This document shows, piece by piece, positions 30,401 to 64,000 of a stretch of DNA of 64,000 nucleotides. The stretch is taken from the NCBI GenBank assembly GCA_965153455.1, contig OZ234494.1, forward strand, positions 7,750,001 through 7,814,000, written 5' to 3'. The DNA comes from Sphagnum compactum. Its lineage: Eukaryota. Both the position numbers and the translations under genes were made by a program. The notes beneath the pieces were generated by a model. The model ran no database searches and had not been told where the DNA came from. It worked only from the letters and a program-made list of their open reading frames with translations. Each line of letters begins with the position of its first letter. The stretch's first letter is position 1.

Positions 30401-30419
30401 ATCGGAAGCATCATTGGCA

Positions 30420-30950: not shown

Positions 30951-31005
30951 AGAATCATGACTTTGTTATTTTTGGATTAGGTTTGTGAACATCAAAATCA
31001 AGTTT

Positions 31006-32667: not shown

Positions 32668-35478
32668 ATGGCAACCACATCCTGTTCGCAGTCTTTAGTT
32701 TTCGCGAGCTCACATGTGTCTTCTTCTTCTTCTGCTGCTTCTTCTTCTTCTTCTTCTTCTTCTGCTTCTTCGTCGTTGTCTGCTAGAAATGCTCTTGGGA
32801 ATTGTAGTACTACTTCGGCTACAGCTTCGTCAGTGCGGAGAGCTTCTTCGACAAGGGGGCGTGGTTGTGGTGGAGGGTTTCAGAAGGGATCACATCTAGG
32901 AACCACGACGTTCGTGGTGCGAGAATGTCGTCGCGTAGCGCCTTTCATGTACCGGGCGGGAGGGTTAGTGGTGGAGGCGGCGAAGAGAGTGGCATCCGGG
33001 CGGAGTTATGTCTTGAGCTCCACCTTGAAGATTCAAGAGGGGAATGAAGAGGAAGTGAGCAGCTTGTGCAAAAGCATACTACAATGGGCTGTCGAGAAGC
33101 AGGTATGATGAACAATTTCCCCTGCTTTTTTTCAGTTGGCTGCGGAGAGTCTCCAGATGCACACAGTCCCTCTTCTCCCTGACACTTTCAAACATTGATG
33201 CGGCACATGTGTGGCACATGTTTGTGTTGTTGTACTTCACTAACAAAACTGTGCAAAAAATTACGAACTTGTGGAAAGTTTGAAGACCCTAACCCTTTCA
33301 TGTTGAATGGTAAAGACATTCTGATGGAGAACTTTTAGGAGCAAGCTGTCAGTTGGCTCAGCTCTTCTTCTTTGGCCACTCCAGAATTCAGACTTTAAAG
33401 GGGTTGAGCAATGCATTTAGCATTAGTGTTCATGTCTTGTGGACAGCCTTGCTTGCAGCTCACTGGCGCTGCCATTCTTTGGAGCTGTTGAAGTCAGTGG
33501 GAAATAAATGGCAGCTAGTCCACTGCCATTTGCGATGAAAGTGATGATGGTATGGTACTCTGCAAGCCAGGGACACTCACAAGGTTACGTCCACACATGT
33601 TCTTATCATGTCTGATTTGGTTTGCCAAGAACAGAGACATTTTAACAGTAGTTATCTTCAAAGTGCTTGTGTGGAGTTTTCTCTGCAATCCCATAAAGAT
33701 ACCATTCGTCTTTGTAAGGCAAGGGAAGCATATGTGTATGTTGTGTATCCTGTACTTGTCATAGTCATATTTTCTAGTTTCTTTAGCTGTTAAGAAATGT
33801 TTTGATCTATGTGCTGGAATTGGGGTTGACTTGCCATTTTCATTGGAGATTACAGTTAGGACACATTTCTGCAATAATTATTTACTCGCAGACTGTTTGT
33901 TACAACAATAACCATCTGGTTGCCTCCACCTACGACTCTTCCTTAAAGCATTTTGGGCCTGGTGTCTACTGTTGGATGGCTTTCTTTTCCTGTATTCATG
34001 AGAGCATCCAGGGTTCATTTTATTAAAGTATTCAAACTCAATTTGAATGTGTACTTTTTGACTTAGGTTCAAGCTTGCAAGGCAAGTAATGGGTTCTATA
34101 TGACCATATGTTGGAGTTAGATACCTTGAGACTGCACTGTCAACCACAGGAATTTCTAAGTGTAAATGCACTACTTAGAGAAGCATGATCTCTTTCACAG
34201 TTTGAGAGGCATACAGGATATAATAGTGATCACCCAATAATTGTTGCATAAACTCACTTGAGTATTACTCTTGGTGGCATCTCCAGAATTTCTTGTCCAC
34301 TAATCTGGCTATCTGACAACTATTGGGGTAATTGGTGAACAGACAGATAAGAAATCAGGCATCCAATGCTTTGAGTGCAATGTGGATCCATTTGAGAAGA
34401 ACGTATTTCATTTCTGGGAACGATATGAAAGCTTTCAAGCAATGAATGATATACGTGCCTCTCTTGAGCATACCAAATTCATGACTGATGTATGTATACA
34501 CCTGTCTCATTTTTGTCTTGTATGACCACATGCTGTCCATCTAGTCCAGGCAATTCTTTTGAGAGGAAGTCATTTTGTCAATGAGTAGCAATTGAAGTGT
34601 GTTGTGGGCTTGTAGCAGCTATCCTAGTGCTGAGAGTGTGGACAGATTGAGGCATGGGAATGTATTTCAGGGATCTGTAGCTATCCATACTTGTAATAGA
34701 GCACATGCAAACTTGGAAGAGCATCTTCTGTGTTGGTCACCAATATGTGGAAATCAATTGTGCCTGTCTTCACTGGTTGGATATGCAAGAGGATATGGTG
34801 TTCAGTTGCACTCCTCATACTTCCCCCCTTTCTAGTCACAGACATGGCACAAGCAGCTTGAATGGCCAACATGAGACTATTCTTGAGAACCTGGAAGAGA
34901 AAAGTGTCAATAGGCAAGTATTTTGATGTTCTACTGTCCTAAGACATAGCTCTTTATTCTATAGAATGAACTTAGCATAAACAAAGTTGGATTTGGATGC
35001 AGGTGAGGCCATTGCTGACAGGACCCATTGGTCTTGCTGTATATGAGTACAAGGACGGGCAAATTGGACACATGATGAACCCTATTGGTATGTCTGGCCC
35101 CCCTTTTCCATTTTGTGTTCCTCAAAGTCCTAGCAGAAATTTTGAACAGATTCCATATGCATCAATTTATGATTATCAAGACTTGTGAAGATTGTTCAGG
35201 TCTGCTTTTATGGCATACCTCACATTAAGATGTGTGGCCTGTAAATTGTAGGTCCCAAGGGAGAAGGAGGGCTGGATGATGCAACAGGGCAATCAGGCAG
35301 CAAACAACAATCATCAGCTATGAATCAGGGCCTTGGGGATACTACCGATAGGGAGCAATGGGGCCTGCAGTCCATGCTAGATAAGGTCATTGGAAAGGAG
35401 AAGCAAGAAAAGGCAGAGAAGGCAAAGAAGGTAGAGGGCTGGAGCTTGAAGACATTGTTCGGAGGTGGCAAAAAGTGA
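32668..35478 (+). CDS. Predicted plastid-targeted ABM (antibiotic biosynthesis monooxygenase-like) / dimeric alpha-beta barrel protein (~297 aa); exons 32668-33102, 34343-34489, 35003-35087, 35252-35478
   Basis: Ser/Arg-rich transit-peptide-like N-terminus. Then YVLSSTLKIQEGNEEEVSSLCK...SGIQCFECNVDPFEKNVFHFWERYESFQAMNDIRASLEHTKFM, an ABM-like pattern (F-x-F-W-E-x-Y...H). All four exons join in phase with GT-AG; TGA at 35476-35478. Confidence 0.85.
32719..32770 (+). repeat. (TCT)n microsatellite encoding poly-Ser in the transit peptide
   Basis: Direct reading; interrupted by GCT codons. Confidence 0.85.
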
Positions 35479-38400
35479 AGAGGCTCTTCAACCAAGCCCT
35501 ACTGGCCAAGAACAATAGAGAGTTCTCTAGATGAAGCTTGGTTTACTGTAGGTGAAAAAGGAGTGTGATTTTTTGTCGGCATCAGTGGGGAGGACATAGA
35601 GACTCATCTTCAAAGGTATCTTCATCATCTTAGAGAACTTTTCAACACCTTTTTTGTTGTGCAATAGTTGAGAATCCTAGTACAGTACAAGCATCCAGTG
35701 CCTAGTTTAACTATTGTCATTATTTAGACAGATGGGTATCAAGCGAAGGATGTTGTCCCATGCTTTCTTTTTGCAGGTCATTCGCCTGTAATTATGAATG
35801 CATCATGCTCACAAATAGGAATGGGATCTGGGAACATTCCTCAAGCTAGGACAGTGTGACAAGGTAGTTCCCTGAAGTCTAGTTGCCAAAACCATGTAGA
35901 TGTGTGGGGGAACTTCATCTGCATATTGATGCCTAGTGACTGTTTGATAGAAATTGAAAGCAAGAGAATCCATGGAAGTTACTCACAACAGAAGCTCATC
36001 TGCAGCCTTCACTTTTGGAGGGGTGTGAGCTTGCATCAAATGTCTGCTCAGGGAAGAATGCACAAGTCTATAAAGAGATGAATGAATGGGAGATAAGGAT
36101 CAATAAAAAGAGGTACTAATTATAATAAGCATACAGAGCTTAAACTAGATGTGGTTACAAAGTCTGAATTTCTCAACAAGACCTTCTCCTTTCTTTTGCT
36201 TACCTCTTTAGTTTTATCTGCCCACTAGTTTCTCAAACCTTGTCCCCAAAGTAGGTTGTACAATCACTCATATGTTATGGGTTGCAATGAACACACCAAT
36301 AGATGGACATCTTCAATGTCTTCCGAAATCCAGCTAGTCCTTAGTCCTTACTATTTGAACATGAAAGAGTCTTGATCTATTTCATTTTGGTCATGGCATG
36401 TGTAAAATTTGTCAACATATTCACATATGCCTTTTTTTCATTCTAAGATTGAAATATTTTATCCTAACTACAAGATAGGTTTTGTAAACACTTGAACGCC
36501 CAACAAGAGGACATTGTGACAATCATATCATGCATGCTATACAATTGATAATTTCCCATTTTAATGATGCAAAGTCAACTATTATTTAGTATGTGAAATG
36601 ATCTTCCAACACATTTTGCCCATACATTTTGAATCTTTCATGCACAAAACAATGCTTCAAAAAGGTGTAGCAACATACACATTAACAATGTATTTCCCAT
36701 CATTTCATGAGGTAGGCAATCTTTCAATCAATTTGAACATCATTTATGATGTTTACATATTTGCTTTTATGTATATCCCTTGTGATCCAATCCAAATTTC
36801 CTAGTGCATATAAGATTTCTTAAAAAACATTGTCAAGGGTCAATGTTTCCCAAGATATTGAAACATTAGGGTAGGATACTAGTTTTGCCCATGCCTATTC
36901 AATTTGATTAAGAACCATGATACTTTGTACACATGACCTCATACATTGAAAGTGGCATCCACCCACTATCATAGGTTTATTATGGGAAATCTGCTATCGT
37001 AATAATTTCAATTGATGATGCCTTCATGCCCATATCTTCAAGAAGAACATGCTTGGAAGCTCTTTTTTTAGTCTTTTCATTGGCATGTATTCCACTCATT
37101 GAGAAGTAGCAATTTTTTTATGGTGCAAAATTTTGGCAAAATGTGAAAAATAAAAATAAAAAGGGAATATTGTGTCACTATATTCCCCTTTTTTGGAAAA
37201 AATCACCATATTTTGAGAAAAAAATTGAAGTTTGATAGCATTTTTTACTATTTAGACAAGTTCCAAAAACTTGTCACCATTTAATGTTAAATCTTTCTTG
37301 GGATGCTAGGCAGTGACACAATATCAAAGATTTATTGGAGAAAACATCATTGTTGAGAAGGGGTTAGGGCACACTCACATTGCAAATTGCAAAACATCTT
37401 TCCACAAGCCTTTTAGCATTGCACTACATTTAATAGATCAAAAAACATTTTTTTGGTTGAGACTTGCAGAGGATTGAACTTTCAAATTAATGTTGTAGGA
37501 TAAGATTAAGACTTGCAATTCACATGCTTGTTGTAATTTGGATTTCATGGTCTTGACACAAATTGATTTGACAATGGAATGTGTGACATGATTGAATATT
37601 CCCAACCCAATAGTACTTTCCCAACAAACTTGGCCACTCATTTACATTAAAGGACATATCTAATTATGCAATGCAAAATAACAACACAATTTCAATTATT
37701 TTCATGAGGTATTGATTAAATGGCTATTCAAAATCCTTTTATATGGAAATATGAGATATAGAATTTTGTATTTGATTGGAGCAATTTAGATGGTAAATGA
37801 AACAAAAATTGGTCCTCATGTCAAAAATGGTAATTTGCATGGAAAAAAAATTTCATATTGGTTGGTGAATATTATTGTATTGTGCATTGGGCATAGGGGT
37901 TTTGTTTTTCAATTTTGTGATACACAAAATTATTCCAAATTTTTAGGAAAATTAGCTAAATTACATAAGGAAAAGAATCCCTAGTTTTGTTGTTGAAAAA
38001 AAAATAAAAATCATCAAAATAAAAATCACTAAATGGGTGTGGACAATTGGGTGCATGCATAAGTTAATGACTTCACCCTTTTGTGACCCTTGGACATAAA
38101 TGGAACATAGTCCCCTTTGCAAAACAAATACACACTTAAAATCTTTGTGTTTGCAAAATTTAAAACGTAATGATTAAATGCATTTGGCAATCCTTAGTAA
38201 AAATGTTGAACATGACCACCCAATAGATTTAATCATCTTTGAAATGTCATACTGGGATCACTTTCCTTTTAAGAAAAGTCAAAATTATCCATGCCTTTCA
38301 CTATATTTAGAAAAAAAGCCAGAAAAAACCTTGTTGACTAATTAGAATGAAAAATCTTCAAATATCACTTATGAAGCAAAATACTTTTAAAGCATTTTTT

Positions 38401-38949
38401 CATATACCAATAGTTTTTTATGATTTTAAACAACACCATGTGAATATTTAATGTTCAAAACAATGTCAAGAATAGAAGTAGGATCGAATTGAAAACGAAG
38501 CTACCAAGATTATGCATTGTCAAAGACATGGATAGTCTTGATTCCATTGATGACTTTGAGAATTAAAGTGAGCACACACAACTCTTGTACAAGGACCTTT
38601 TTCCTATTTTCCTATTTTCATTGTTATGGTTGGCTTCACATTTATCAACCTCTAGACTTTGAGGTTCAATGTAATTTAATTATGTATGTTTGTACGTTTG
38701 TATTTTGGAGAGCATTCCATAAATCTTTTTTGGATTTTGGTATTTAAATGTTTTCTTTAGTTACACATGTACAAGGATGTTGGGGAGGGATACATGGTGG
38801 TACCACAAATGTTAGGGGAATATTATCAATGAACATTCAATCAAATCACACTAAAATAGATAGCAAACACTAAATCGTAGGTGGCATTTGAGTTGGCACC
38901 AATGGTAGGTTGTAGTTTCATAGCAAAAATAAATGTTAAAATAACATAA

Positions 38950-39346
38950 AATGTTAAAAAGTGCAAGATTTTACACTTCAACAACAATGTTACATAAAAT
39001 TACAAAAAATGGCAAGCGTATGTTAAGGTCATTGCTTATTTCTCCCTTTCCATCCCTTAGCAAGCCAACCTATAAAGACAAGTGGGGAACTATCTATAGA
39101 TATCAGAAAAAAAGTTTTTATTACATGAATAGCATCGGCCCCAATGAAAAGTATTGGAAAATTGTCACAAAAGATAATATTGAATCGGGATCACTAAAAC
39201 ACTTCACCAAAATAAACTATGAAATGATTGACACATTTATGAATGCCACTAGGCCATGCAAAAATCGTCAACACTTGAAAATTTTAATGAAGGTACATGA
39301 TAGTGTATACCAAGTGCAACCATGCATTTGCAACCAAATGTTTTAA
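38950..39346 (+). mobile_element. Degraded Myb/SANT (trihelix-like) DNA-binding ORF, likely PIF/Harbinger ORF1 remnant
   Basis: KDKWGTIY...YYMNSIGPNEKYWKI...KHF...YEMIDTFM matches the trihelix/Myb-SANT pattern CxDKWxxxxxDxKKIxDY...YWxM...LPxxF. No partner transposase recognised. Confidence 0.55.
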
Positions 39347-41181
39347 AAAGGTGATTAACTCAACTTCTAGGCAAAGGATTATGAAATAAAATCATCTCCA
39401 TTACTTGTGTACAACATTGTCCTACGGTTGTAAAGGAAAACAATCGAGTTAACCCCCAAACACATTGCAAGTCTCATGTCATTGAAAGTTCCAATCATAA
39501 ATTAGCAAGTACCCCTACAATTCAAACCTCACATCAATTTATATTTGTGAATACAATTGTAGAAGATGGATGAACTACTCCAACATTTTGCATTCCAAGG
39601 AGAATTGTTCCTACATTGCCAAACAATGCAAACGAAATTACAAAGCTAATTGACCAAATAAAAAGTGGATAATTTGGGCACCAAGTGACCGGAAGCACAA
39701 GAATGAAAAAGAATTGTGCAACATCGCAAAGTAGTTATCCATATTTCAACTGTTAGACTCTCTTGAAAGCTCAACTTCTAACACAAAAAGATTTTTTAGA
39801 CTAATGCATTCTAGTCATGTTCCTTCTAGTCCTTTGTGCCTCAATGTCTTGCATGGCTTCAAATTGTGTCACCCTCATGACTTGTTCAACATCAACTTCA
39901 TTCCTTCCAAATGTTAGGTTATGTTAAAGACAACACACAATAAAGGCAAATTAGGAACAATGGTATGGTGCAAACACACTAACAAGAGTCATGCTTACCA
40001 CTTAAGGTGATACTTATAAAGTAATCGGTTTGTTTGCCAAAATGATGCGACAAACAAAAATTGATTGCCAAAAGCAATGGATTAGAAATATTCCATGACT
40101 TTTACAATGACTACAAATATTCACAACAAAAAAATGTGATGATATATTATTGTGTATAGGGTTATACATGACATGTTAGTCTATCTAACACATCACATCA
40201 ATTTTGACATTGATGCGCCTTGATGTCGCATTTATATTAAATGTTGTGCAATAGAATTTAAATATGCTTTGAAATAAATACTTTAAATGAATGAATCTTA
40301 TCCAATTTTTGACTATTACAAGATGTGTCCTCATTTCACGACACATTTCACTCGCATTCCACCTAACACTGAATGGGAAAAAGCCTTGTAATAAATTTGT
40401 ATCATAAATTACAAATAATTACATAAAATACCATTATATTTCCATACTTTTTTGAGGGCATGTAAATAACCATTTTGGGATCTAAATCCGGGTTATAAAT
40501 CATTAATCTTCAGCCACATAATTTATTTCTTACATGTGACCAAAATTTTGGTAACAAGTAAATTCTATTGCATTTAAATTGTAAATGCAACCAAAATTTG
40601 AATCCCACTCAATTTGTAATTTTGGTCCCATGTGAATTTTAGATGGGATCAAAATTTGTAATCCATGTAGAATTACATGGGACCATGTAAATTTTACATG
40701 CCATGTAAAATTCATGAATTATACATGAAACCAAAATTTCAATCACATGTAGAATTACATGGGACCAGACATGTACATGGGATTGAAATTGGGACCAAAC
40801 TTATGTAATTTTACATGTGACAAAAAATTTGGACCCATGTAAAAATTTAGGTTCCATGTAGAAGTTTTCCAAATAATTGAACACATGGGATTGAAACTTC
40901 AATCCCAATCTTAATCCCATTATATTTTAGTTAAATTTCACCAAAGTTTTGACAACAAAAAAATGAAAAATTGTGGAAGGCTTCCATTTGCATAAAAAAT
41001 TATTGCTTCAAATGAATATTTATCGATTATGTTCCATTATTTGATATTTATGAACTTTCATCCGAGCATTTTGTATCTTGACATGGACACATGGATTTTC
41101 CAACATGTTAAAATATTGGCAACAAAATAGTTTGGGGACATGAAATGATAGGATTTATATCACAAATTTAACATGCGACAA

Positions 41182-48200: not shown

Positions 48201-50878
48201 TGGCCAACCATAAGCTTCTTGGGTGGCAATATGGTGCATGATTGCTAGAAAGTAGATGTTAGGATTTGAGTATATGCATTGATATTGGCTCCTAGAATTT
48301 TATTTACAAAGGAATGAATGTTTCACAGCATACATAATTCATAAATCCAAAATCTGGCCTTACAAATGGTGACTTAAAAGATTGTAAGAACTCCCCTATG
48401 ATATAATAGCCACTGTTGATCATCATGTCTCTTTTTTTTATCACATTCTTTTTCCCTATTCTTGGTGTCGAAAATAGAAGATTGAGATATAAAAATCCCC
48501 TGGGCCAAATTTGAGCTTTGATGGGTTTCAAATTCACCCAAATTTATTGATTAGTGTTAAAACATTGGGATATGGATATTAGTAAATGCAGCAATATTGG
48601 GTGTCGGGGTTTAATTTACCAAAGAATGAAAGTTTGAAAGAATCTAAAGTTTGGCCTTGCAATTTTTTCAAATTTTGGTTGAAAAGATTGCAAAAACTCC
48701 CTACCACATAGCAACCAATATTGTTCATCATGTGTTTATATTTTTATCCCACATTTTTTCCCTACTCTTGGTGCCAAGAGTATACAATTGACACATGTAG
48801 TTTCCAAGCATGTTAGTTAATGTCTCCTTTTACATTAGGAGTCAGGGATAAAAATGCTTGGGTAATTTGATGGGTTTCAAATTCACCCAAATTTGTTCGT
48901 AAATTCAACATCACTACTACCTTAGGGCAATAATAAATTTTCATTATATAAAACAATAACTCAAAGAAATTAATCATTAACAAAGAAATTTTTTCATGAT
49001 TTTTTATAAATATTCATCAAAGCCATCCTTAAGTTTTTTAGGTGACAACAAATTAGTTAAAAACATTTGTGTCTCAAAGATGAATCTTATGTTAAAATGT
49101 TAATTTGCTTTCGATTTTTTGTGTTTTTTTTAGTCAATTCTTGCATAAATTTTGAATTCAGTTTTCGAGATTTAGATTTAAAGGAATTGAAGGTAATTAC
49201 TTGTATATTTCTCAAACGAAATTTATTTTAAAAATAGGACATATGGATAGTTTTTTATAATTCATATTAATATGCCACTTGCTGAAACAAACAACACAAG
49301 TGCCAAGCAAAAAAATAAAAATAAAATGGAGGTATGATTAATTTGGTTACCCAACATTCATATTTGGATAAGAAACCCAACAAGTAGATGGTTGGTGTTC
49401 AAATGAACTTATTTATTGGATGGGTGCACCCAAAATCCACACGTCATACTACATACACATTCTGTGATGTTTCAAGCCTCAGCTCTTGAATCCACACGAA
49501 GTTTATCATCACTTCTCCTTTTGGTTTATAAATTGTTTTACACGTTATGCTGCTTTTTCTTTTAACTATCATCAATATTGTCTTTCTTTGTGGTAGACAT
49601 ATTGAGTAGAGCCAACTTTTCTAGGTGTGTTGTTCACATCATTTAAACCCGTTTCTATCCTTGGTGTTGCTAGTTATGGGCCTTCCTCTTCCTCATTTGT
49701 CATGTTTTCTTCTGGGTTTTGTGTTTTCAACATTGTGCTTCCTTCTTTATCATTTGATTATGTCATTTCGGCATTTACACATGTTGCAAAGTCTTCCTCT
49801 TCCACTTTGCTGGTAATTGTATTGGCCTCCACCAACTAGCCCATTTCCTTGTTGTATGCAAATGTTAGTGTTTCATATGGATCGTGTTTTGCATCTGATT
49901 TGTTTCTTGGCCATTTCTTTTCTAAGATTAAATCGTTTATTTTTTTGGGCGCTTGGAATCCTAAGAGGTAATCGCATCGTTGATGAAGTCTTGTTCTAAA
50001 ATTTTTATTTGTTGAATGTGTTAACCATGGATTGTCTCTAGGTGGTTGTGGCAAGCTGTTCAGAAATTTTGGCATAAACATTTTGATCTTTGTCCCATAT
50101 ATCTTATAGTCTTACAAGTGGTTAGTAGATGCCCAATATCCAACCTCTGCCTGGAACTATGCATCTACATTCTTCAACTTTCCTTTTGTTATAGACGGGT
50201 ACAAATCCAAATTCGATGGTGTTTGACAAAAATGTTGTGGATATGGATATTGTGACATTTTGCAAACGAAAAATTTCTATCCTAGGTTTTTTTGAGTTGA
50301 ACCTTTCAACTTGAAAATAAAATTACACTGAATGCAATTCATAACCCATTTTGGAAACATGTTGGGTTAGTGACATATTTCTAGTTGTCCACTCCAATTT
50401 TTGATTTAGATTTACCATGATATCCATTGGTTTTCATTGGACCAATTGGTTGGTAGTGATGAATTTAGAACAGCAGCATTTGCCACAACGGCTCCTAATG
50501 GAAAAATAACTGCACGTGTATCAACAACCACAAAATCATGTACTTGCATATGATAATCATTTATTGCTTTGATCTTATTTTGTCTATGATTGTTTCCCTC
50601 AATAGTCAATGTGCATTTGTTCAACATGCAATTTTAGTGTTTAAGTTCAGCCTTCCTTTTATTTCTTTTTTTCACAATTGTATATTTCTTTCTAAGATCA
50701 CTATTTTGAAGAAATATTCATATTAACATGTGTATTGCATTATAATTTAATGCAAACAATTGAGTTTTAGTCCCTCCTTCATTTTTCGACATGTCTTCGT
50801 TTTCGACTATTGTACACCTCTTGTGGTTTCGGGGCCAGCCTTATCATCTAACAATTCACAAGCTAGTTTAACACTTTG

Positions 50879-51182
50879 TGTTATGGACCGACTACAAACA
50901 AGTGGAGAATTACAAGACAAGACAAGCTTTATTGACCCATCAACTGGTGTTGATCTGCTAAAGGGTTGTTCCCCAGACTATCTCCTTTTATAACCCTGAG
51001 CCATACTAGTCCCAAAATATCCTAGGCCATGATATTGCCAAAAGTATCCCGAAATATCCTAGGCCATGATATTGCCAAAAGTATCCCAAAATATCCTAGG
51101 CCATGATATTGCCAAAAGTATCCCAAAATATCCTAGGACATGACATTGCCAAAAGTATCCCAAAATATCCTAGGCCATGACA
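50879..51182 (-). repeat. 3' LTR (304 bp; 4 full + 1 partial 37-bp U3 repeats)
   Basis: Identical by eye to 57496-57762 except for one extra CCCAAAATATCCTAGGCCATGATATTGCCAAAAGTAT unit. Confidence 0.97.
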
Positions 51183-54100
51183 TTATCCTCTCCTCAAGCG
51201 ACATCTTCTAGATGGAGCCGGTTTGTTAGGATATCGTTGGTGAAACCGATTAACTAAGTCTTGGGCATGAACTAGGTTTCCAGCAGGCTCCCAAGTAGCT
51301 TCAGAAGGAGGATAACCTCGCCAAAAGACAAGGTACAGGAGCTTTCCACGAATCTTCTTGGAGTCCAAGACCTCCTGAATTTCAAACTCTTCTTGGCCTT
51401 CAATTTCGACTGGAGCTGGGGGTTCTTGATGACGTTCTGGGATCAGGTTTTCATGATAGGGCTCAAGCAGGGAGACATGGAAAACATTGTGGATTTTGAA
51501 CTGGGGTGGAAGCTCCAACTGGCAAGCCACTAGACCAACCAATTTTGCGATTTTGAAAGGTCCGAGGCGCTTGTAATCCAACTTGGCACATGGGCGAGTG
51601 GTAGCAATGTTCTTTCTGAGAAGCCAGACCTTGTCTCCAACCTTGAAGTTTGGATGGTCCTTGCGTCGGCGGTCTGCTTGCTTCTTTTGCCACTCCTGTG
51701 TTAGCTTGAGTTTTGCCATAAGGTTCTGTTGAACCTGTCCAAGCCTCGTGGCCCTTTCTTCAGCCGAGGGGTTTACGGAATCTCCAGGAATTTCAAGGCT
51801 GAACCTGGGATGAAAACCGTAATTGGCAAAGAATGGACTGATCCCGGTCGATGCATGTGTTGTGTTATTATAAGCAAACTCTGCTTGAGATAGTAGGTCC
51901 AGCCAGTCGTCCTGTTGGTAGTTCACAGTGCAGCGAAGGTATTGCTCGAGTGTCTGGTTTGTCCGTTCGGTTTGTCCATCTGTCTCAGGGTGGAAAACTG
52001 AAGATAGCCGAATGTCAACTCCAAGAAGCTCGAATAGACGATGCCAGAACTTGGATGCAAACTGAGGACCTCTGTCGGACACAATTTCCTCGGGGAGTCC
52101 ATGCAGTCGGACGATCCCGTCCAGAATTAATTGAGCTGTCTCTTCTGCCGTGATTGACTTGGAACAAGGGGTGAAATGGGCCATTTTGGTGAGTCGATCA
52201 ACCACAACCAGTATTGAATTCTTGGTTCTGACAATAGGGAGGTCCGTGATGAAGTCCATTGCAATAGATCCCCAAGGTCGGCTAGGAATCGACAGAGGCT
52301 GTAGGAGTCCAAACGGGCGATGCCTGGGAGCTTTGGATCGAGCACATGTATCACTAGACTTGACATATTCCCCTAGCATCTTGTTCATTTTGGGCCACCA
52401 GTAAGTCCTTGACACTAGTTCGTGAGTCCGTGCCATTCCAAAGTGACCTGCCAGGGTGTTGTCGTGGCATTCCCTCAGGATTTTTAGGCGTATAGGTCCT
52501 TCGGGTACATAAATCAGGTTATTTCGAAGGAGAAGTCTGTCTTGCTGCTCAAATTGATCCAAGTCATCACGATTTGGGTTCCTTGGTCGTTCTTGGAGTT
52601 CCTTCTTGATGTTGGTAGCCCAGGTGTCTTCCTCAGTTGCCATCTTGATGTCCCTGACAAGGTATGAGTCTGGGAGGGTGCTGATTGTTGCTGCAACTCG
52701 AAATTGCTTGGGGTTGAGTAAAGTCTGGTTCTGCTGGCCGTAGGCCTCAGCCCCCGCTCGAAGTTCATATTCTGAACGACGAGATAGCGCGTCAGCTTTC
52801 CCTTGCTGGGTGCCGGGTTGATACTGAATCTCAAAGTCGAAATCAGCTAGGAAGATAGACCAGCGTGCCTGGCGACGATTTAAGGTCCGAGTAGTTGTGA
52901 AATAAAGAAGATTCTTGTGATCTGTCAAAACTTGGACTCGATGTTGAGCTCCGGCAAGATACGGTCTCCACTGCTCGAATGCCGTGATGATTGCCAGAAG
53001 TTCCTTATTGTAGACCTGGTAGTTGATTTCGGCACTGGTTAACTTCCGTGAATAAAAAACAACTGGATGCAGCAACCCATCTATTCCAAATTGAGATAGA
53101 ATAGCTCCCAAGGCAAAATCTGAAGCGTCCGTTTCCACAATGAATGGCTTGGCAGGATCGGGATGTATCAGGATGGGTGCAGAGGTGAATGCCATCTTGA
53201 GAGTATCAAAAGCAGCTTGGGCCATTGGATTCCACGAGAAGGGCTTGTCTTTGCAAGTCAGGGTTATTAACGGTGTTGTGATCTTGGAGTAGCCTTTGAT
53301 AAACCGACGATAGAAGTTGGCAAACCCTAGGAAGCGTTGAACGTCCTTGACCGAGGATGGAGTAGCCCAACACTCGATGGTCTCGACCTTTGATTTGTCC
53401 ATGAAAATGCCATCTAGAGAGATCACGTAGCCGAGGAACGCCACTGAAGATTTGTCGAATTCACATTTTTCCAACTTGGTGTATAAGCCATGCTCCCGCA
53501 ACGTCGCAAGCACCAATCGTACATGTTTGTCGTGGGTTTCCTGGTCCTTGGAAAAGATTAAAATGTCATCCAAATAGACCACGACAAATTCGTCCATGTA
53601 ATCCCGGAAGATATCATTCATCAGATGCTGAAAGACTGCGGGTGCATTGGTGAGGCCGAAGGGCATGACCGTGTATTCGAAGTGGCCATAGCGTGTGCGG
53701 AAAGCTGTCTTCCATTCATCACCAGGGCGAATCCTGAGTAAGTTGTAGGCTCCACGGAGGTCAAGCTTGGTGAAGATCTTCCCGGTACGTAGTCGATCTA
53801 GGAGACCTGAAATCAAGGGCAAAGGATATCGATTCTTTTTGGTTATCTTGTTGAGTCCACGATAATCCACACAGAGTCGAAGGGAGCCATCCTTTTTCTT
53901 GACAAACAAAATTGGGGCGCCGGCTGGAGACTTGGAATGCTGAATGAACCCCTTGGCAAGATTTTCAGTAAGGTAATCACGTAGGGCTTGGAGTTCCGGT
54001 TCTGATAGGCCATAGATAGGACCAAAGGGTGGTGAGTGTCCTTCTTCTAGATCAATCGGGCAGTCATATGGACTATGGGCGGGGAGCTGATCAGCATTAA

Positions 54101-54941
54101 TCTTTTCAAAAACATCAACAAAGTCCTTGTACTTCTTGGGAAGTTTGACAGGTGTTGGTTCTGATTGGGGGTTTGTGGTGTTGGCTGGGTTGACATGGAT
54201 GGCGAAGACTTGAAGATTCTTAGCAGCCCGATAGAAAAGGACAGCTCTATCAACGAAGATCTGGACAGGGTTGGTTTTCTGGGCAGGATTCTTGACAAGA
54301 TTCTTGACAGGACAAGGTTTCGTTCTGACCAACCGGGGGTTCTTGACTGCAGGATTTGACATAACAGACTTGATAAAATTGGAATTGGTTCCGACCCTCT
54401 TTGGGTTCTCGACCACAGGGTTCTTGGCAGGACTGGACAAAGTGTTTTTCTGAGCGTGGGGTTCTTGAGAGGTGCATCGTTGTGCGCTGAAGGTGAGGGT
54501 TCTAGATCGTCAATCAATGATAGGGTTGTGTGCTTCTAGCCAAGGCAGACCAAGGATGATGGGATGGTGAGGGGTGGAAATGATGTTGAGAACAATCTTC
54601 TCCGTGTGCTTGCCGATACAGAGTTCTAGAGGGGTTGTCTCGTGTGTGATTGCACCAGAAGCAATGGTTCTCCCATCAATAACCTCTACCGGAACAGGGG
54701 TTGACTTCTTGACCACAGGGATGTTGTGTTGGACGACAAATGTTTGGTCGATGAAAGAAGAGGTGGCGCCGGAGTCCACCAAAGCTGACACTTGTGGTAT
54801 GTCTTCTGGAATACGAATGATGTCCACATACTAAGTGAAACTGGGACTGGGACCAACAGCGGAACAGGAGCCTTTGCAAAGGTGGTGTTGGGTGAGATCC
54901 AGTCGCACGGCTCCTACTATGACTGGATGTTCTTGTTTTCC
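51183..54941 (-). CDS. pol: pol polyprotein (aspartic protease, RT, RNase H, integrase, chromodomain) in the -1 frame relative to gag; interrupted by in-frame stops at 54833-54831 and 54512-54510
   Basis: ALVDSGATSSF (PR); LCVDYRGLN, KLDLRGAY, MPFGLTNAPA, VYLDDILI (RT); ETDASD (RH); H..GH, MDFITDLP, SDRGPQF, ETDGQTER, GPF (IN); FEIQEVLDSK..LYLVFWRGY..EATWEP (chromodomain). ORFs 54831-55037, 54510-54827 and 51183-54440 share one frame. Confidence 0.95.
54866..54941 (-). promoter_or_regulatory. Predicted -1 programmed ribosomal frameshift signal (G_GAA_AAC + 6-nt spacer + H-type pseudoknot)
   Basis: Heptamer at 54941-54935. Stem 1 AUCCAGUC (54928-54921)/GACUGGAU (54904-54897). Stem 2 AGGAGCC (54915-54909)/GGCUCCU (54872-54866). 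Confidence 0.75.
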
Positions 54942-55888
54942 AACTCCTGGGGAGTTTCCACAGCTTGTACCTGAAGTTTGACAAGCTTTTGAGGGCATTG
55001 ACGAGTTATATGCCCTGGGTTGCCACAGTAAAGACATAGATTGTTTGTCCTTCGGCGAAGTTTCTCGGCTTCTGTCAAAGATTTAAACTTAGCTGTGTCG
55101 ATCTGCATCGGAGCAGGTCCAAAAGAGGCAGGTCGGGCAACTGGTGTTGTTTGGGGAACTAAGGGGAGCGTAGTAGGCCGACTGTTCCAAAGCTGGGCGT
55201 TGGAGGTGACTTTCTTTTCCTGGCGACGTTCGAATAGACGATTATCGCACCGAATTGCCTGGGTGATGGCTTCACTGAAGGAAGAAGGGTCTGCGAGTGT
55301 CAACAAAAGATCTTGAACATCATCACGAAGCCCACAGCGAAACTGATCAATCAAGGCAGCTTCTCCCCAATTGACGTCACAAGCAAGCTGCCTGAATTCT
55401 GAGGCATAGACGATGGCCGAACGTGTCCCTTGCTGGAGGCGACGCAGCTTGTTGGTTGAAGTCCTGGCCTTATCACTGTCCCCAAATACTGCTTCAAATT
55501 CCGCCATAAAGGCGTTGAAATCTTGTAGAAGAGGGGATGATGTTTCCAGGATGGGAGCAAACCATGCTGCAGCTGTCCCAGTGAGTAGGGTTCCAACGAA
55601 TCCTACACGAGTGGTGTCATCAAAATAACGACGGGGGTGTAGTTGCATGATCAGGCGTACCTGGCTGACAAAGCCTCGAAATTTGAGGCGCGTTCCATCA
55701 AACTTTTCTGGCAGACTGATCTTGGGCTCTTGGGCGGCCATTGCAAGAGCAGGAAGTACTGGGGTAGGAGGTGGTGGCTGATTCTGTAGGCGGGTCACCG
55801 AGTCTCTAAGCACGGCATTTTCTTGTTGAAGGTGCTGAAGGGCGGCGAGGATTTGAGTGAGATCGATGTTGGATTCTGAGTTGTCCAT
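54917..55888 (-). CDS. gag: Gag (323 aa): Ty3-type capsid with CCHC zinc knuckle
   Basis: ATG in ACCATGG context; PEKFDG...LLTGTAAAW...LQQGTRSAIVYASEF...FRCGL; PMQID; CLYCGNPGHITRQC; ends in TAG TAG. Confidence 0.95.
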   Translation of the reverse strand: MDNSESNIDLTQILAALQHLQQENAVLRDSVTRLQNQPPPPTPVLPALAMAAQEPKISLPEKFDGTRLKFRGFVSQVRLIMQLHPRRYFDDTTRVGFVGTLLTGTAAAWFAPILETSSPLLQDFNAFMAEFEAVFGDSDKARTSTNKLRRLQQGTRSAIVYASEFRQLACDVNWGEAALIDQFRCGLRDDVQDLLLTLADPSSFSEAITQAIRCDNRLFERRQEKKVTSNAQLWNSRPTTLPLVPQTTPVARPASFGPAPMQIDTAKFKSLTEAEKLRRRTNNLCLYCGNPGHITRQCPQKLVKLQVQAVETPQELENKNIQS

Positions 55889-55926
55889 GGTGGTAGTTCT
55901 CACACTTTTGCGCTTTCAATCTTCAA

Positions 55927-57353
55927 ACTTGAAACTTCAGATGCTTGGATCTCTCTCAATACAAGTCCAAATGACATGAAATTTCTCTCACACATATATT
56001 CCTATATGATCTATAAGATCACAAAGTTACAGACCTAAAAAAACTTAAACAAAGGAGATATGACCAAAAAACCAGATCTGCACTTGAAACTTCAGATGCT
56101 TGGATATCTCTCAATATAAGTCCAAATGACATGAAATTTCTCTCACACATATATTCGTATATGATCTATAAGATCACAAAGTTACAGACCCAAAAAAGCT
56201 TACACAAAGGAGATATGACCAAAAACCAGATCTGCACTTGAAACTTCAGATGCTTGAATCTCTCTCAATACAAGTGCAAATGACATGAAATTTCTTTCAC
56301 ACATATATTCGTATATGATATATAAGATCACAAAGTTACAGACCCAAAAAAGCTTACACAAAGGAGATATGACCAAAAAACCAGATCTGCACTTGAAACT
56401 TCAGATGCTTGAATCTCTCTCAATACAAGTGCAAATGACATGAAATTTCTTTCACACATATATTCGTATATGATATATAAGATCACAAAGTTACAGACCC
56501 AAAAAAGCTTACACAAAGGAGATATGACCAAAAAACCAGATCTGCACTTGAAACTTCAGATGCTTGAATCTCTCTCAATACAAGTCGAAATGACATGAAA
56601 TTTCTCTCACACATATATTCGTATATGATCTATAAGATCACAAAGTTACATACCCAAAAAAGCTTACACAAAGGAGATATGACCAAAAAACCAGATCTGC
56701 ACTTGAAACTTCAGATGCTTGGATCTCTCTCAATACAAGTCCAAATGACATGAAATTTCTCTCACACATATATTCGTATATGATCTATAAGATCACAAAG
56801 TTACATACCCAAAAAAGCTTACACAAAGGAGATATGACCAAAAAACCAGATCTGCACTTGAAACTTCAGATGCTTGGATCTCTCTCAATACAAGTCCAAA
56901 TGACATGAAATTTCTTTCACACATATATTCGTATATGATCTATAAGATCACAAAGTTACAGACCCAAAAAAGCTTACACAAAGGAGATATGACCAAAAAA
57001 CCAGATCTGCACTTGAAACTTCAGATGCTTGGATCTCTCTCAATACAAGTCCAAATGACATGAAATTTCTCTCACACATATATTCGTATATGATCTATAA
57101 GATCACAAAGTTACATACCCAAAAAAGCTTACACAAAGGAGATATGACCAAAAAACCAGATCTGCACTTGAAACTTCAGATGCTTGGATCTCTCTCAATA
57201 CAAGTCCAAATGACATGAAATTTCTTTCACACATATATTCGTATATGATCTATAAGATCACAAAGTTACAGACCCAAAAAAGCTTACACAAAGGAGATAT
57301 GACCAAAAAACCAGATCTGCACTTGAAACTTCAGATGCTTGGATCTCTCTCAA
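55927..57353. repeat. Tandem array of 155-bp monomers (9 full + partial) inside the retrotransposon 5' leader
   Basis: ACTTGAAACTTCAGATG starts at 55927, 56082, 56236, 56391, 56546, 56701, 56856, 57011, 57166, 57321. Confidence 0.98.
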
Positions 57354-57483
57354 AACATATCCTTTTCTTTTGAAACTTTGAGAGTAGAAGCGTCCTATAG
57401 TCTTCTATAACCTTTTCCAAGTTTCACTCCAATATACCTCTAGCTACTTACTGAAACAACAAAACAAACAAACAAGAAGAAGG

Positions 57484-57493
57484 AGCAGATCAA
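57484..57493 (-). promoter_or_regulatory. Primer-binding site complementary to the element's own R-region 5' end (self-priming type)
   Basis: TTGATCTGCT lies 2 nt inside the 5' LTR end and is complementary to AGCAGATCAA at 57576-57567. No TGG-initiated tRNA PBS is present. Confidence 0.75.
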
Positions 57494-57495
57494 AC

Positions 57496-57762
57496 TGTTA
57501 TGGACCGACTACAAACAAGTGGAGAATTACAAGACAAGACAAGCTTTATTGACCCATCAACTGGTGTTGATCTGCTAAAGGGTTGTTCCCCAGACTATCT
57601 CCTTTTATAACCCTGAGCCATACTAGTCCCAAAATATCCTAGGCCATGATATTGCCAAAAGTATCCCGAAATATCCTAGGCCATGATATTGCCAAAAGTA
57701 TCCCAAAATATCCTAGGACATGACATTGCCAAAAGTATCCCAAAATATCCTAGGCCATGACA
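57496..57762 (-). repeat. 5' LTR (267 bp; 3 full + 1 partial 37-bp U3 repeats; TATAAAA at 57609-57603; AATAAA at 57550-57545)
   Basis: Direct comparison with the 3' LTR; TATA and polyA motifs read on the minus strand. Confidence 0.97.
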
Positions 57763-58556
57763 CTTTGTTCCTTAATTATTGTGGCACCCAATCTCGCTTG
57801 CTTGAAGTTGCATAAAATTGTCTTTTGGGTTTCATGAATTTTATTGATAGTAAGTTACTAAGGGTTATCAAATCTTCTATCGACAAATCGTTAAGTAAAC
57901 TTGTGAAAAAATGTTCTGGAATTGACTTCTTCAAACTCGCACATTCTTTGAAGAAATCCATGGCATGTGTAAACATTGCCAAATTGTAATCTTCCATATC
58001 TTCCTTGAAAATGTGTACAATCTATTTAAATAATGCAAAACTTTTTTTGTTTATCTTTGCATTAGCCCATTGCCATGCCGCCCATTCATATGTTTTGTCA
58101 ATTACCTTTTTCCATTTTGTTCCCCATGTTTCGATTTTGAACAAATGCCAAAGGGGGTTTAGTCTGGTATCATCTCTTGGATATTCCAACGGGTTTTTTT
58201 GTCATTTCACAAATTTTATTTAGTATGGTTGAGATTAATGTGTATTCAATCATTGATTCCAAAGTGTTTGGTGTGACATTTGGTCTCAGTTTTCTTCTTC
58301 CCATTGTACAATAAAGGTTTCATGATTACAAACACGTGGTAGAGGTAGAAAGGATTCAACTAAACAATAAGGGTAGAATAAATGTAACTTCAGGTATAGA
58401 TTGGGAAAATTAGTAGTAGAGGGGGGAAAATGCAATTTGATTGTACAAGTTGCAAGAATGGTGCTAAATGCAAGAGGTTGAGAATGTGAATGAAAATAAC
58501 GAATAATTTGAAATGGTATAAACAATGTTAAGTGTTAGTGGCTACTTGGTATTGTT

Positions 58557-58734
58557 TCAATTCTTAATGGGCACATGCCTCTTGGTGGTGAATGGGTAAT
58601 GTATGGATTGGCACATACCTTTTGGTGGGTCACTAGGTTTATAATTAAGTATTGTTGTCTCAATTCCTAATGGGCACATGCTTCTTGGTGGTGAATGGGT
58701 AGTGTATGGATTGGCACATACCTATTGGTGGGTC
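58557..58734. repeat. Direct duplication of ~75 bp (period ~103 bp)
   Basis: TCAATTC(T/C)TAATGGGCACATGC..CTTGGTGGTGAATGGGTA.TGTATGGATTGGCACATACCT.TTGGTGGGTCA occurs twice. Confidence 0.85.
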
Positions 58735-59373
58735 AACATGTTTATATGCCACTGAATTGGATTTAGTTCAAAATTTGAAATGGTTTAAATGTTGCAAAAA
58801 TTCATGTTAAGGAAATATGAAGTATAAATTGAAAATTGCATTAACATGTTCAAGATAAACGAACATGAAATTATTCCATCCTATTTCTTTTGTTCAATTT
58901 TTTGCAAAAACAATTTTGTTGCCAACATTCATTTGAAAGTTCATCCATTTGATTTATCATCCATTTATCATCTAAGAATATCATTAATCCATGACATGTG
59001 GTAGAATATTCCTCCATGTCATCAAATATTTTGTTTCGTGTGTCAAATAGTATTTTGTCGATGTTAGCAAGATATTCCTGAAAAGATTCACTTGGGCTCA
59101 CTTGTTCACACCCATGTGTTCATTGCTTATGCTCACAAGATAACAACCCTGTGGACAAACACAAACACTTATAAAATACCATGCAAAATTAATGCATTTA
59201 ATCCACTTTTTGAAATCATGATTTTATAATTGTGTTTAAGAACATATTTCATTTAGAACAATGTTATAATCATTTCAAAATCGTTAATTATGGTATTTTC
59301 CACCCAAAAAATTACAAAAAGTTATTTAATTTTTTTTTTTTGAATAGGATTGAGATCGATAATTTCATAACAT

Positions 59374-60703: not shown

Positions 60704-62484
60704 CTACAGCAGATTGTTGATTAGCTCGTAGAGGTGATTGTGAAAGGCGAGAAGGAATCGAGAAGGGAGGCAAAACATCAAGTTCAAGCCGCCATCGTTA
60801 GTTCCATTCGATACCAACAATGCAAAGCCTTCTCCGCTAGGTACTGGTGGTCCTGCAAACGTGGGTTTGCCCCACCCATAATCCATCTCGTAAAATGGAA
60901 ATCTCCACCATGTTGATAGTAGTACTGCATTGTTGCCCATGGCAGGCAATCCCGTTGGATGAAGTTCTAGCCAGTCAATTGCTGATCTCACATACTCATT
61001 GTCAACTCTTGCCATTGCTTCCTGCACTTTGGTTACACAATATGATAATGGCTTTTTGCGAAGCTCATCAGCCAACACACTTGCACATGGTGAAAGAATT
61101 GCATTCCCCACAAAAGATTCTGGGATCGATGGCTTTATCTGAAGTTCAAGACACCCCAATCACCTTATCAGTGGAATGGAATTGCATAGACATAATATTG
61201 CCCAGTGTTGGAATCAACAAAACCTCAGAATTAATTCAACTCCTGCCAAGATCTTTGTACAACCTTCAAGGCAAGTCTAGGTGCATGCAGAGAAGTGTGC
61301 ATAGGTTTACTCCTTACCCGATCTCGAAAGTTGACTGAAAACAAGATCTTGGAGTGTTCTCCTGGCTTGAAGTTGATGGTTTTTGTGCGTGCAAGCCAGA
61401 AATTCGCCACAACTACTTCAAATGTAGTGCACTTGGCAACAGTTCCATCATCCATGGCCACCTTCTTCAACTGTTCAATCATGGTCGGTGTAAATGGAAA
61501 GAGCTTAGTGACAAGCTCTGCCTGGACACCAGTCAGTGTTCTTGATCTGTCAAGACCATGTTGATTTGGAGGGGCAGCTGGATCAGATGGTGGCAAACAC
61601 ATCTCCGGGTGATCAAACACTACCATAGGAGGATTGCGAGCTTTCAAGAGACTCCTGAGGTTTGATTCTGGATTGTGCAAAACTGTGTTGTTGCGAGCCA
61701 GAGAACAAAAATCTCTGTAAAATTGTACCACTGCAATTCCATCTAACATTGAATGGCTCATCCTCGACCCAACAGCAAAACCGCCACATTTGAATCTTGT
61801 TACCTGAAAAAATCAAGCAATCTCTGAGGTTGCATAATAAGGTTTCAATAACTGGAGCAACTTGATAGCCCAAACTTTCTTCCATTGCAAAGAGCCACAT
61901 TGCTTTGATGCAAATGATTATGAGTAAGTACAAGCCGTATTCAAAAGTGTTCTTTGACAATTGGATTTTACCTGAATCATAAGAAGAGGACCATGTATGT
62001 CTTCAACATCAGGGAGAGGAGCTGGAAGGACTTGTCGTAAGGCAGGATTCAAGTTGTGGAAAATGTCTCCCAAATCATGAACTGTGGATTCAGTGGAAGC
62101 AGCAATAAAGATTGCTCCTTCTCGATTGCATGCAATGTCAAGTCGTCCCCCATCCTTTTTGTTGAGCTTGAACCTACCAGCCATGAAGTGATAGGGGACC
62201 AGCAACTTTGCCATTGCTTCTCGCAGCACATCAAAAATGCCTTCAGAACTTTTGCATGGATTAGGAGGATAAATGAAAAACAACTCCACTGGGTATTGAA
62301 CCATGCGATCAATGTTGGACATGTAGATCACTTCCTCTTTGGTGGGTTGTTGTGGATACACAATCCAAACTTTGTTCACCTTCACTACCAAACTTTTGGT
62401 AGATTCAGCAGATTCAAGAGTTTCTTCTTCAATGACTGGATCATCTTGCTGGTGATCATCTTCAAGAGCAAGTTCATGAGCCAT
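60704..62484 (-). CDS. BAHD acyltransferase (~477 aa), most like the omega-hydroxyacid/aliphatic hydroxycinnamoyl-transferase group; exons 62484-61972, 61803-61318, 61138-60704
   Basis: YMSNID, YHFMAGRF, PLLMIQ|VTRFKCGGF (conserved Q intron), HSMLDG (HxxxD), FVGNA, EYVRSAIDW, DYGWGKP (DFGWG variant). Phase-0 GT-AG introns; stop at 60706-60704. An acceptor at 62497-62496 suggests an upstream UTR intron. Confidence 0.93.
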
Positions 62485-62682
62485 TGTTTCTTCCTCTGAA
62501 AGCAGATAATCATCCCCAAACATGCCCCTTACATATATACTGTATCGAAGGGGAAAATGATTCATTACTTCCATGTATACATGCAAACTGTGTGATCTTC
62601 TTGTACATATCTAGCTCTCTAATGGCTCATCATCACCACTGCCAACAGTGGGGCTTTGAATACCAAAACTGACAGGACTAGA

Positions 62683-62918
62683 GACTCGATTACCCATCAA
62701 AGGATCATACTCACCAACAATTCAGCCCCAAAACAACAAGCAGTAAAGACTTGATTACCCATCAAAGTACCATGCTCACTAACAATTCAGCCAAAAGACA
62801 ACAGGATCAAAGACCAAATTACCCATCAAGGTACCATTCTCACCAACAATGCAGCCCAAAAACAGCAGAATTACAGACTTGATTACCCATCAATGTATCA
62901 TACTCATAAACAATTCAG
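62683..62918. repeat. Tandem repeat, ~64-65-bp unit, about 3.7 copies, upstream of the BAHD start codon
   Basis: GAC...ATTACCCATCAA.G...CAT.CTCA..AACAAT.CAGC at 62683, 62748, 62812, 62876. Confidence 0.85.
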
Positions 62919-64000
62919 CACGGTCAACCGGTTTTCTTCTGGGTCAGAAAGAGATTGCATGCAATTCATGCTGACAATACGATTTCTGCCTCTAAACATT
63001 TCCTCCTCCTACCAACTCTTGACTCAGTAGTCACATCATTGGTGCTGCCTGCCTGCCTGCCTGCCACTTTGTGCAACTTGTGAACTTGGTATCATTCATA
63101 ACCCAGTAATGTACTCTAGCAAGATGTCAAAAAAATCTCAAAGCTGTTGTTGTTGTGAGTTTGGATTCAGAAGCCAATGCTATTTAGACAGACACGAAAA
63201 TCTCTTTACTTAGCAAGCTAGTTTTAGCTGAAGAATTTACCATTCTCTTGTAACCATTGTCCTGACTGAGATCCAAAACTAGATCTAACTCAGTTTGAAG
63301 ATGGAGCTTGTGGACCAGTCCTTGGAAAGCTTCAAGGACTTAGAAAAGTTGCTAAAGAGATAGATATATCTGAATATCAGATGTTTGCAAAAAGGAAAGT
63401 TGATAATGAGATAGATATATTTGAATATCAGATGTTTGCAAATGCTTTTGGGTATATTTTTCATCACAATTGCATGTTTGAGGGCTCAAGGATTCTGCTG
63501 CTCACATTACCATGGCCACAATTAGCTGGAGTCAGGATTAGATTACTGTTCTGGATTTTGCTGAAATTCAAGCAAGCTTCGGCAGTTCTCAACGTGCAAG
63601 GAATGCAGGGAGCACAAGTTCTGATCCTCCATGATGCTGATGTCAAAGGTTATCACAAAAAGCCCTTGAGTCAGCTGCAATTTCTTTACTGGGGGGCACA
63701 AAGCAAGGTTGCCCCAGATGCTCAAATCCCTTTCCTGATGGAGAAACTGCATAAGCTGGAAATGGCCATTCTTTGTGCTCCTGAGATTGACCTTACTATC
63801 AAGGTGTGGCCTAGAGTTGATGCATTCTAAGTCTGAGTAGGATCAATCAGGGAAAACCAAAAAACAGTTCCTGTTGATTTTTTGTGAGCTGGAAGAGCTT
63901 TCGCTCTCTGGCTCTAAGTGGCTGGAGAAATAGTCAAAGGAAATCCGGCTGCTGTTCTGGTCTTCTCAGGCTGAATTTTGGGGCTCATGCACAGATCTCA

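Follow-up and report, generated by a model that had tools for sequence, protein, structure and literature searches.

A 155-bp tandem array in the 5′ leader of a Sphagnum chromovirus is probably a local expansion of an element-borne repeat

Here we describe a tandem array of 155-bp units in a 64,000-nucleotide (nt) stretch of Sphagnum compactum DNA (GenBank assembly GCA_965153455.1, contig OZ234494.1, positions 7,750,001 to 7,814,000; this whole stretch is called the window). The array fills most of the 5′ leader, i.e., the region between the 5′ long terminal repeat (LTR) and the gag ATG, of a minus-strand Ty3/gypsy chromovirus of 6884 bp (50879-57762). We suggest, with a probability of about 75%, that the array is a transcribed leader repeat that is carried by the element, has been expanded locally and most likely has no function by itself. 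On this view it arose when one unit of an old tandem-repeat module was multiplied in register within this lineage. This module is also present in the leaders of a Ty1/copia family. An array of this kind is nothing unusual; a module that is found in two superfamilies is. The coordinates of the features are collected in Table 1.

Tandem Repeats Finder (TRF) describes the array with a period of 155, 9.2 copies, 97% matches and a score of 2701. In a BLAST search of the monomer against the window there are nine full copies (m1 to m9, of which m2 has 154 bp) and one 37-bp partial copy, and outside the array no match is longer than 14 nt. Thus, the first-pass annotation of this DNA, made from the letters only, was right to report nine or more near-identical monomers. 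Aligned in register, the monomers have 13 variable columns and differ from each other at 0-8 positions per pair, with zero differences between m3 and m4. This identity, and the duplication of 56701-57010 at 57011-57320, had both been noticed by eye and are exact letter for letter. The duplication had also been interpreted as an A-B-A-B higher-order repeat, which calls for a qualification. The A-B block is indeed present as two identical copies, but this is a single event, the halves A and B differ at just 2 of 155 positions, and TRF does not report a 310-bp period for the array. The array starts 138 nt past the 5′ LTR and ends 38 nt short of the gag ATG. The whole leader of 1607 nt is therefore made up of 138 nt of unique sequence, the 37-nt partial unit, 1394 nt of nine units and the 38-nt spacer. 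It contains 22 upstream ATGs, and each unit adds two or three.

Relatives were taken from metagenome contigs with an exact match to one 33-mer of the unit, which gives at least 120 loci. According to family-specific flanks, the monomer lies in a chromovirus leader at 58 of the 120 loci listed and in a Ty1/copia leader at 53, while 8 loci have too little flank and 1 is a fragment. All eight short-flank loci among the matches listed run on into the same leader module. The fragment of the module at L041 is outside both leader contexts and is a shortened copy. A search for stand-alone arrays as opposed to element copies had been proposed at the outset, and its outcome is that the monomer occurs in element leaders, with no stand-alone array among the 120 metagenome loci listed. 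The comparison of array length among family members, proposed at the same time, shows that length does vary. The 17 listed chromovirus loci that extend from the leader to gag have one full unit (7 loci), two (7), three (2) or four (1), as against nine in the window. The position of the array is identical in all 17 complete leaders and the copy number is variable. A fixed place in the untranslated region (UTR) and a variable copy number are the marks of retrotransposon-internal UTR tandem repeats, and both are found here, in the 5′ leader and not in the 3′ UTR.

The leaders of the relatives also tell us where the period comes from. Every family copy examined has the same layout. The LTR is followed by ~57 nt that contain the priming site and by a decayed partial unit, after which come the full units, often about 2.7 decayed units, and gag. 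In the window, and in 13 of the 14 leaders scanned in relatives, the first full unit is preceded by the partial unit (model positions ~114-152). It ends in a 37-nt stretch that repeats the end of the next unit, so that even copies with one unit still hold a 37-nt direct repeat with a spacing of 155 nt. Decayed units after the full units are detected in 5 of the 14 relatives' leaders (E = 4e-4 to 8e-3), with a local score of 29 compared with 15.2 ± 3.0 for shuffled sequences (maximum 28). The sub-lineage of the window copy, which includes L052, L103, L117 and L120, has lost about 400 nt of these decayed units, and because of this loss the array adjoins the spacer. The period of 155 bp goes back to an older array, now decayed, within this leader, and it is uninformative on nucleosomes either way.

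The array of the window bears its own signature. At unit positions 76 and 122 (plus strand), monomers m2 to m9 all have G and C, respectively, where m1 has the common C and A. Among the metagenome monomers listed, G76 is present in 1 of 136 and C122 in 0 of 136. In a maximum-likelihood tree of the units, m2-m9 form a clade (support 99/92), and m1 clusters with those units of L052, L103 and L117 that are nearest to gag. A private clade of this kind argues for a local expansion, in which eight of the nine units derive from one founder. In the same tree, the units of two chromovirus sub-lineages cluster by array position and not by locus. Short arrays have therefore been transmitted through retrotransposition, which holds for arrays of two or more units. 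The first-pass annotation had regarded the element as an incubator or vehicle of a nucleosome-phased satellite. The vehicle part of this idea is borne out, in that the repeat is carried from copy to copy with position-wise grouping of its units; the satellite and the nucleosome-phased analogy are not.

We suggest that units would be gained and lost through misaligned pairing of the repeats. This could take place by template switching of the reverse transcriptase (RT) between or within co-packaged RNAs, or, after integration, by unequal exchange or replication slippage. The variants shared among m3-m9 form an ordered mosaic, which fits unequal exchange. Such an expansion would need no function. 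It would most likely be neutral or mildly harmful to the element, because 22 upstream ATGs precede gag and the copy is already defective.

The leader, and with it the array, is transcribed in sense. Reads were aligned to 57166-58000, a target that covers one unit, the partial unit, the unique leader, the 5′ LTR and flank. In poly(A) RNA of the same species label, 438 raw reads fall on this target, about 10:1 in the expected sense orientation, and 83 of the RNA reads cross a head-to-tail unit junction, at which the read goes back 155. RNA depth is ~170-208 on the one unit versus 31-49 on the unique leader. At unit position 76, where m2-m9 have G, 205 of 221 reads have C, and most of the RNA therefore comes from other copies. 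No joint that skips the array is present in the RNA reads within 57166-57500, i.e., the LTR-proximal 330 nt of the leader (its gag-proximal end lies outside the target of the reads), and within this part there is no support for the earlier suggestion that the array is a spliced-out intron. For DNA, contigs from two other species labels have a summed depth of ~124,000-211,000 and 17,000-42,000, respectively, on the unit and of ~24,000-41,000 and 2,700-14,000 on the unique leader, with tens to hundreds on the flank. The ratio of unit to leader is thus ~3.5-6. This suggests, as an order of magnitude, a high-copy family with ~4-6 units per leader and not a bulk satellite. Small shares of the stretch (0.12-0.14) are also found in moss and plant metatranscriptome runs, and run X16 has a 365-nt contig in which one unit is followed by unlike sequence.

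The 155-bp unit belongs to a module of ~700 nt that consists of ~4.5 decayed units, and alignments show directly that this module is shared between the chromovirus and the copia family. L075 (chromovirus) and L011 (copia) align over 705 nt with 87% identity. Among the loci listed, 33 copia and 4 chromovirus loci have the whole module in one alignment, and the identity between the families is 85-90%. The copia copy of the module includes the last ~80 nt of what appears as unique leader in the chromovirus, followed by the partial unit and a single full unit, and then by the decayed units and the beginning of the spacer. It begins ~230 nt after the copia primer binding site (PBS). In the chromovirus the module runs to 12 nt short of the gag ATG and is nearly the whole leader. 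The module has sharp boundaries, outside of which the two families are not similar. That the second carrier is a Ty1/copia element follows from its domains, which are Retrotran_gag_2, Pol_BBD, rve, SH3_retrovirus and RVT_2 in this order. Its LTR is 313 nt long with TG..CA ends, and this is followed by a 12-nt PBS-like site, which we take to be of the tRNA-Met type. The copia carriers are L011 (minus strand, element from sense position 3251), L024 (3255-8033), L068, L017 and 49 other loci listed. Because the copia copies differ from each other by ~9-12% and come from many contigs, the sharing of the module is not an assembly chimera. In addition, the copia-specific junction is matched by loose ends at 57432 that are present in the DNA contigs from both other species labels. 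In the unit tree, the copia units are placed next to the chromovirus variants L061 and L026 (support 99/91). The tree has no outgroup, and for this reason it does not name the donor family.

Two candidate origins were rejected. The module is not a SINE-like insertion (short interspersed nuclear element), as its ends have neither poly(A) nor a target-site duplication. The unit is also not derived from the LTR or the unique leader, for its similarity to these does not exceed that of shuffled sequences (sense 16 vs 15.1 ± 2.5, antisense 12 vs 11.6 ± 1.7). Some variation at the module ends is seen. The chromovirus variants L026, L028, L033, L036 and L040 keep ~25 nt more copia-like sequence at the gag end of the module, a stretch that in the window type is deleted between short direct repeats. 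At L059 (sense 2885-3254, and 3255 onward) two tandem copies of the copia LTR, together with ~60 nt that include the PBS-like site, stand immediately ahead of the 5′ LTR of the element itself.

The presence of one module in two superfamilies with different priming means that very different co-packaged RNAs have recombined or that a common leader element has been selected for. Both possibilities would bear on the evolution of the non-coding regions of retrotransposons. Sharp-edged exchange of a segment is what would be expected from template switching, as in the recombinants treated in the available text of Sabot and Schulman 2007 (PMC1950507). There, however, the partners belong to one family or to close families, whereas here they are a Ty3/gypsy and a Ty1/copia element. 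In a limited search of the literature we found no description of a leader shared between gypsy and copia elements, or of leader arrays in Tcn1-type elements.

Several points weigh against a local expansion without function, or limit what can be read from the data. The differences among m2-m9 reach 7/155, which is not clearly below the divergence of the two LTRs (3/267). Since the two are not clearly separable, the expansion could have taken place either before or after integration. The count of nine units is that of the assembly, and the RNA junction reads confirm the head-to-tail order and not the number. The counts of 1-4 units in the relatives are lower bounds, because short-read contigs collapse or break and many of them end inside the array. 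The scan with an exact 33-mer could miss diverged or very long free arrays, and the unit-to-leader ratios of ~3.5-6 are ratios of summed contig depths and not copy numbers. Lastly, the module has been kept in the copia family and its units have re-expanded in at least two chromovirus sub-lineages, so the unit could do something.

This last point leads to the idea of a functional cis-acting leader cassette, which would work as a downstream enhancer at the DNA level or in RNA export, translation or stability, and of which extra copies would be favoured. It would explain the presence of the same module in two unrelated retrotransposon superfamilies, where some 700 nt are 85-90% identical between sharp edges and nothing is alike beyond them, and it agrees with a module that is nearly the entire chromovirus leader. 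The units have been re-expanded independently in two chromovirus sub-lineages, and the U3 of the same element likewise multiplies a 37-bp unit. However, the tests for structure give no sign of a stable or conserved RNA fold. One unit, two units on both strands and the start of the leader have fold z-scores of +0.25 to +1.06 relative to shuffles, i.e., none of them is more stable than shuffled sequence. When 129 distinct units are folded as an alignment, the fold is weak (-12 kcal/mol; covariation term, -1.9), and the one pair that is often "compensated" in it comes from a block-substituted unit end and not from independent changes. There is no Rfam match for the unit at E ≤ 1, and part of the conservation seen in mid-unit is imposed by the exact-match search pattern. 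Furthermore, the sub-lineage of the window copy lost ~400 nt of decayed units and yet produced several copies, all 53 copia copies listed have a single full unit, and each unit brings 2-3 upstream ATGs. An antisense open reading frame (ORF) of 90-121 amino acids across the module was considered as well and is not coding, as it is open in 12 of 37 copies and the differences at the three codon positions are 216/232/205 (p = 0.43). We therefore regard a function of the unit as unlikely. It is equally doubtful that the module is a functional cassette that moved between the chromovirus and copia and was kept via a host factor that would serve transcription from downstream of its start, RNA export or translation, with the number of units tuning the effect.

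We consider it very unlikely that the length of the array is an artefact of assembly, by over-expansion or by a mis-join of reads from different copies. Though the two exactly identical blocks are such as an assembler loop could yield, and the unit count is that of the assembly, G76 of m2-m9 is found in ~7% of the independent RNA reads on the unit, and the ordered mosaic of variants from m1 to m9 is unlike the output of a simple loop. Arrays of up to four units are resolved in relatives even in short-read contigs, and the depth ratios suggest an average of ~4-6 units. The satellite interpretation has even less in its favour. CentO and CentC form very long free centromeric arrays with a unit of ~155 bp, and the unit length found here is within the range of plant centromeric satellites. 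The likeness to CentO and CentC ends with this length and the head-to-tail order, for in the window and among the loci listed the unit is found only in retrotransposon leaders, in 1-9 copies, and not in long free arrays. Satellites are known to arise from arrays in retrotransposon UTRs (Vondrak et al. 2020, PMC7004042, as far as its text is available), and the arrays described here are spread by the element. However, long arrays outside the parent element, which characterize satellite DNA, are absent from the 120 metagenome loci listed, all in short-read contigs, and the ratio of unit to leader depth is only ~3.5-6. The window also bears genes (aldo-keto reductase and BAHD acyltransferase exons). 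Repeat-rich pericentromeres are reported to be absent from Sphagnum, where the putative centromeres lie at clusters of RLC5 Copia elements (Healey et al. 2023, PMC9946827; review PMC13120521; both from the portions accessible). Taken together, a free-standing or centromere-type satellite is not supported, and we consider it extremely improbable that the element incubates a nucleosome-length satellite that seeds or resembles centromeric arrays. If the copia carrier were a family of the RLC5 type, the 155-bp unit would be a component of a centromere-marking retroelement.

Local expansion of an element-borne repeat has good precedents. In 2009, Macas et al. reportedly described hypervariable tandem repeats in the 3′ UTR of Ty3/gypsy elements of the Tat/Ogre type. 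According to the accessible text of Vondrak et al. 2020 (PMC7004042), Tat/Ogre arrays vary between copies and sometimes grow into satellites, and abnormal strand transfer between co-packaged RNAs has been proposed as their origin. As in those elements, we see short arrays at a fixed place in the UTR, with variable copy number and spread by the element. Unlike them, the array described here is in the 5′ leader of a moss chromovirus and not in a 3′ UTR, and no expanded free satellite is found among the loci listed. A second parallel is provided by CRM1TR and CRM4TR of maize, which, in what is available of Sharma et al. 2013 (PMC3648361), are transcribed repeats of chromovirus LTR and UTR whose variation is shaped by exchange between units. 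There the unit is composed of LTR and UTR and is present at separate loci, whereas the Sphagnum unit resembles neither the LTR nor the unique leader and is bound to the element. On the basis of these partly available sources, the array of the window is of the same kind as the Tat/Ogre and CRM arrays, located in the 5′ leader of a moss chromovirus and still element-bound. Since UTR tandem repeats are a known source of satellites, this bryophyte case shows an early, element-bound stage. Its marks are the graded series of 1-9 units, the inheritance of arrays by position and the recent local burst.

The host is a chromovirus, as had been recognized from its chromodomain-integrase. Pfam matches in pol are RVT_1, RNase H, Integrase_H2C2, rve and Chromo (E = 2e-13, residues 1042-1092), and the order of the domains is protease, RT, RNase H, integrase and C-terminal chromodomain. 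The LTRs with TG..CA ends, the 5-bp target-site duplication and the polypurine tract next to the 3′ LTR are also those of a chromovirus. The pol ORF is up to 66% identical to its relatives, and among named proteins its closest relatives come from organisms other than seed plants (fungi, amoebozoans, charophytes and fish), with 44-56% identity. The two LTRs are 98.9% identical over 267 bp, and their difference in length is one copy of a 37-bp tandem repeat in U3. TRF gives 4.7 copies of this repeat in the 3′ LTR (51010-51184) and 3.6 in the 5′ LTR (57627-57760), and therefore one 37-bp unit has been gained or lost since integration. The copy in the window is defective because of a nonsense codon and a frame change between gag and protease. 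At the codon that corresponds to 54510-54512, nine related copies have TGG (5), TAG (3) or GGC (1). Programmed read-through of this stop was rejected, since relatives mostly have the Trp codon there. Gag and protease are in one frame in 7 of 8 related copies and in different frames here, with the change at ~54830-54944; a comparison with relatives that have a single ORF likewise shows the frame change.

The array had been placed between the PBS and the gag ATG. This placement is correct, but no tRNA-type PBS is found after the 5′ LTR, and a self-priming-like site stands in its place. The candidate self-priming PBS (57485-57493) consists of the 9 nt directly after the 5′ LTR, which are complementary to 9 nt inside the LTR (57566-57575). 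The latter are located 34 nt downstream of a TATA-like box (57601-57609). The predicted start of the RNA is at ~57575, and in the centroid fold the first 9 nt of the predicted RNA pair with the post-LTR site. Of 34 related loci, 9 have the full priming complement (9/9) and 25 have 7-8/9 of it; paired changes are seen in 3 loci. Judged in silico, the element thus looks like a self-priming one of the Tcn1 clade and Tf1/Sushi type. In the accessible part of Neumann et al. 2019 (PMC6317226), such a layout is predicted for the Tcn1 clade of moss and club-moss chromoviruses. The element shares with this group (PMC6317226; Novikova et al. 2010, PMC2864245) its host, i.e., a moss, the chromodomain, the lack of a tRNA-type PBS and the RNA start complementary to the post-LTR site. 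Tandem repeats in the leader are not mentioned in the available text of either paper, and the likeness is one of features. We would thus call the element Tcn1-like.

Table 1. Positions, within the window, of the array and of the parts of the chromovirus that carries it
Feature	Position	Strand	Description
Target-site duplication, left copy	50874-50878	.	5 bp, same as 57763-57767; flanks TG..CA LTR ends
3′ LTR	50879-51182	minus	304 bp, TG..CA ends
Polypurine tract	51183-51195	minus	Purine run adjoining 3′ LTR upstream; overlaps pol stop codon
pol ORF	51183-54509	minus	1108 amino acids; RT, RNase H, integrase, SH3, chromodomain (Pfam)
In-frame stop codon between protease and RT	54510-54512	minus	Adjoining ORFs in one frame
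Aspartyl protease ORF	54513-54830	minus	RVP_2, E = 7e-8
gag ORF	54917-55888	minus	ATG 55888-55886; Retrotrans_gag, E = 1.3e-16; frame differs from protease-pol
Spacer, array to gag ATG	55889-55926	minus	38 nt; ~first 26 nt are shared leader module
Leader module shared with Ty1/copia, extent in window copy	55901-57438 (approximate)	minus	From boundary alignments
155-bp array	55927-57357	minus	m1 55927-56081 ... m9 57166-57320, plus 37 bp
Exact duplicate of 310-bp two-monomer block	56701-57320	minus	String identity, 56701-57010 = 57011-57320
Non-repeated leader	57358-57495	minus	138 nt; from ~57438 downward shared module
5′ LTR	57496-57762	minus	267 bp, TG..CA ends
Target-site duplication, right copy	57763-57767	.	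5 bp

Other tandem repeats in the window are at 30429-30939 (50/100 bp, 10 copies), 31932-32384 (140 bp, 3 copies), 62682-62919 (64 bp, 3.7 copies) and 58552-58746 (103 bp, 1.9 copies), and in BLAST none of them is related to the 155-bp unit. An aldo-keto reductase exon is located at 16136-16804 and is 94% identical to a Sphagnum magellanicum protein and 97-98% identical to further database entries. Exons of a BAHD-type acyltransferase lie at 60704-62610, ~3 kb from the element, and a fragment of a LINE-like endonuclease (long interspersed nuclear element) is at 28877-29536. In a 370-nt DNA contig from another species label, the match is confined to the last 3 bases of the LTR and the flank (57760-57971), and 158 unmatched letters stand ahead of it. 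This fits an unoccupied insertion site in that species, of which one half is seen.

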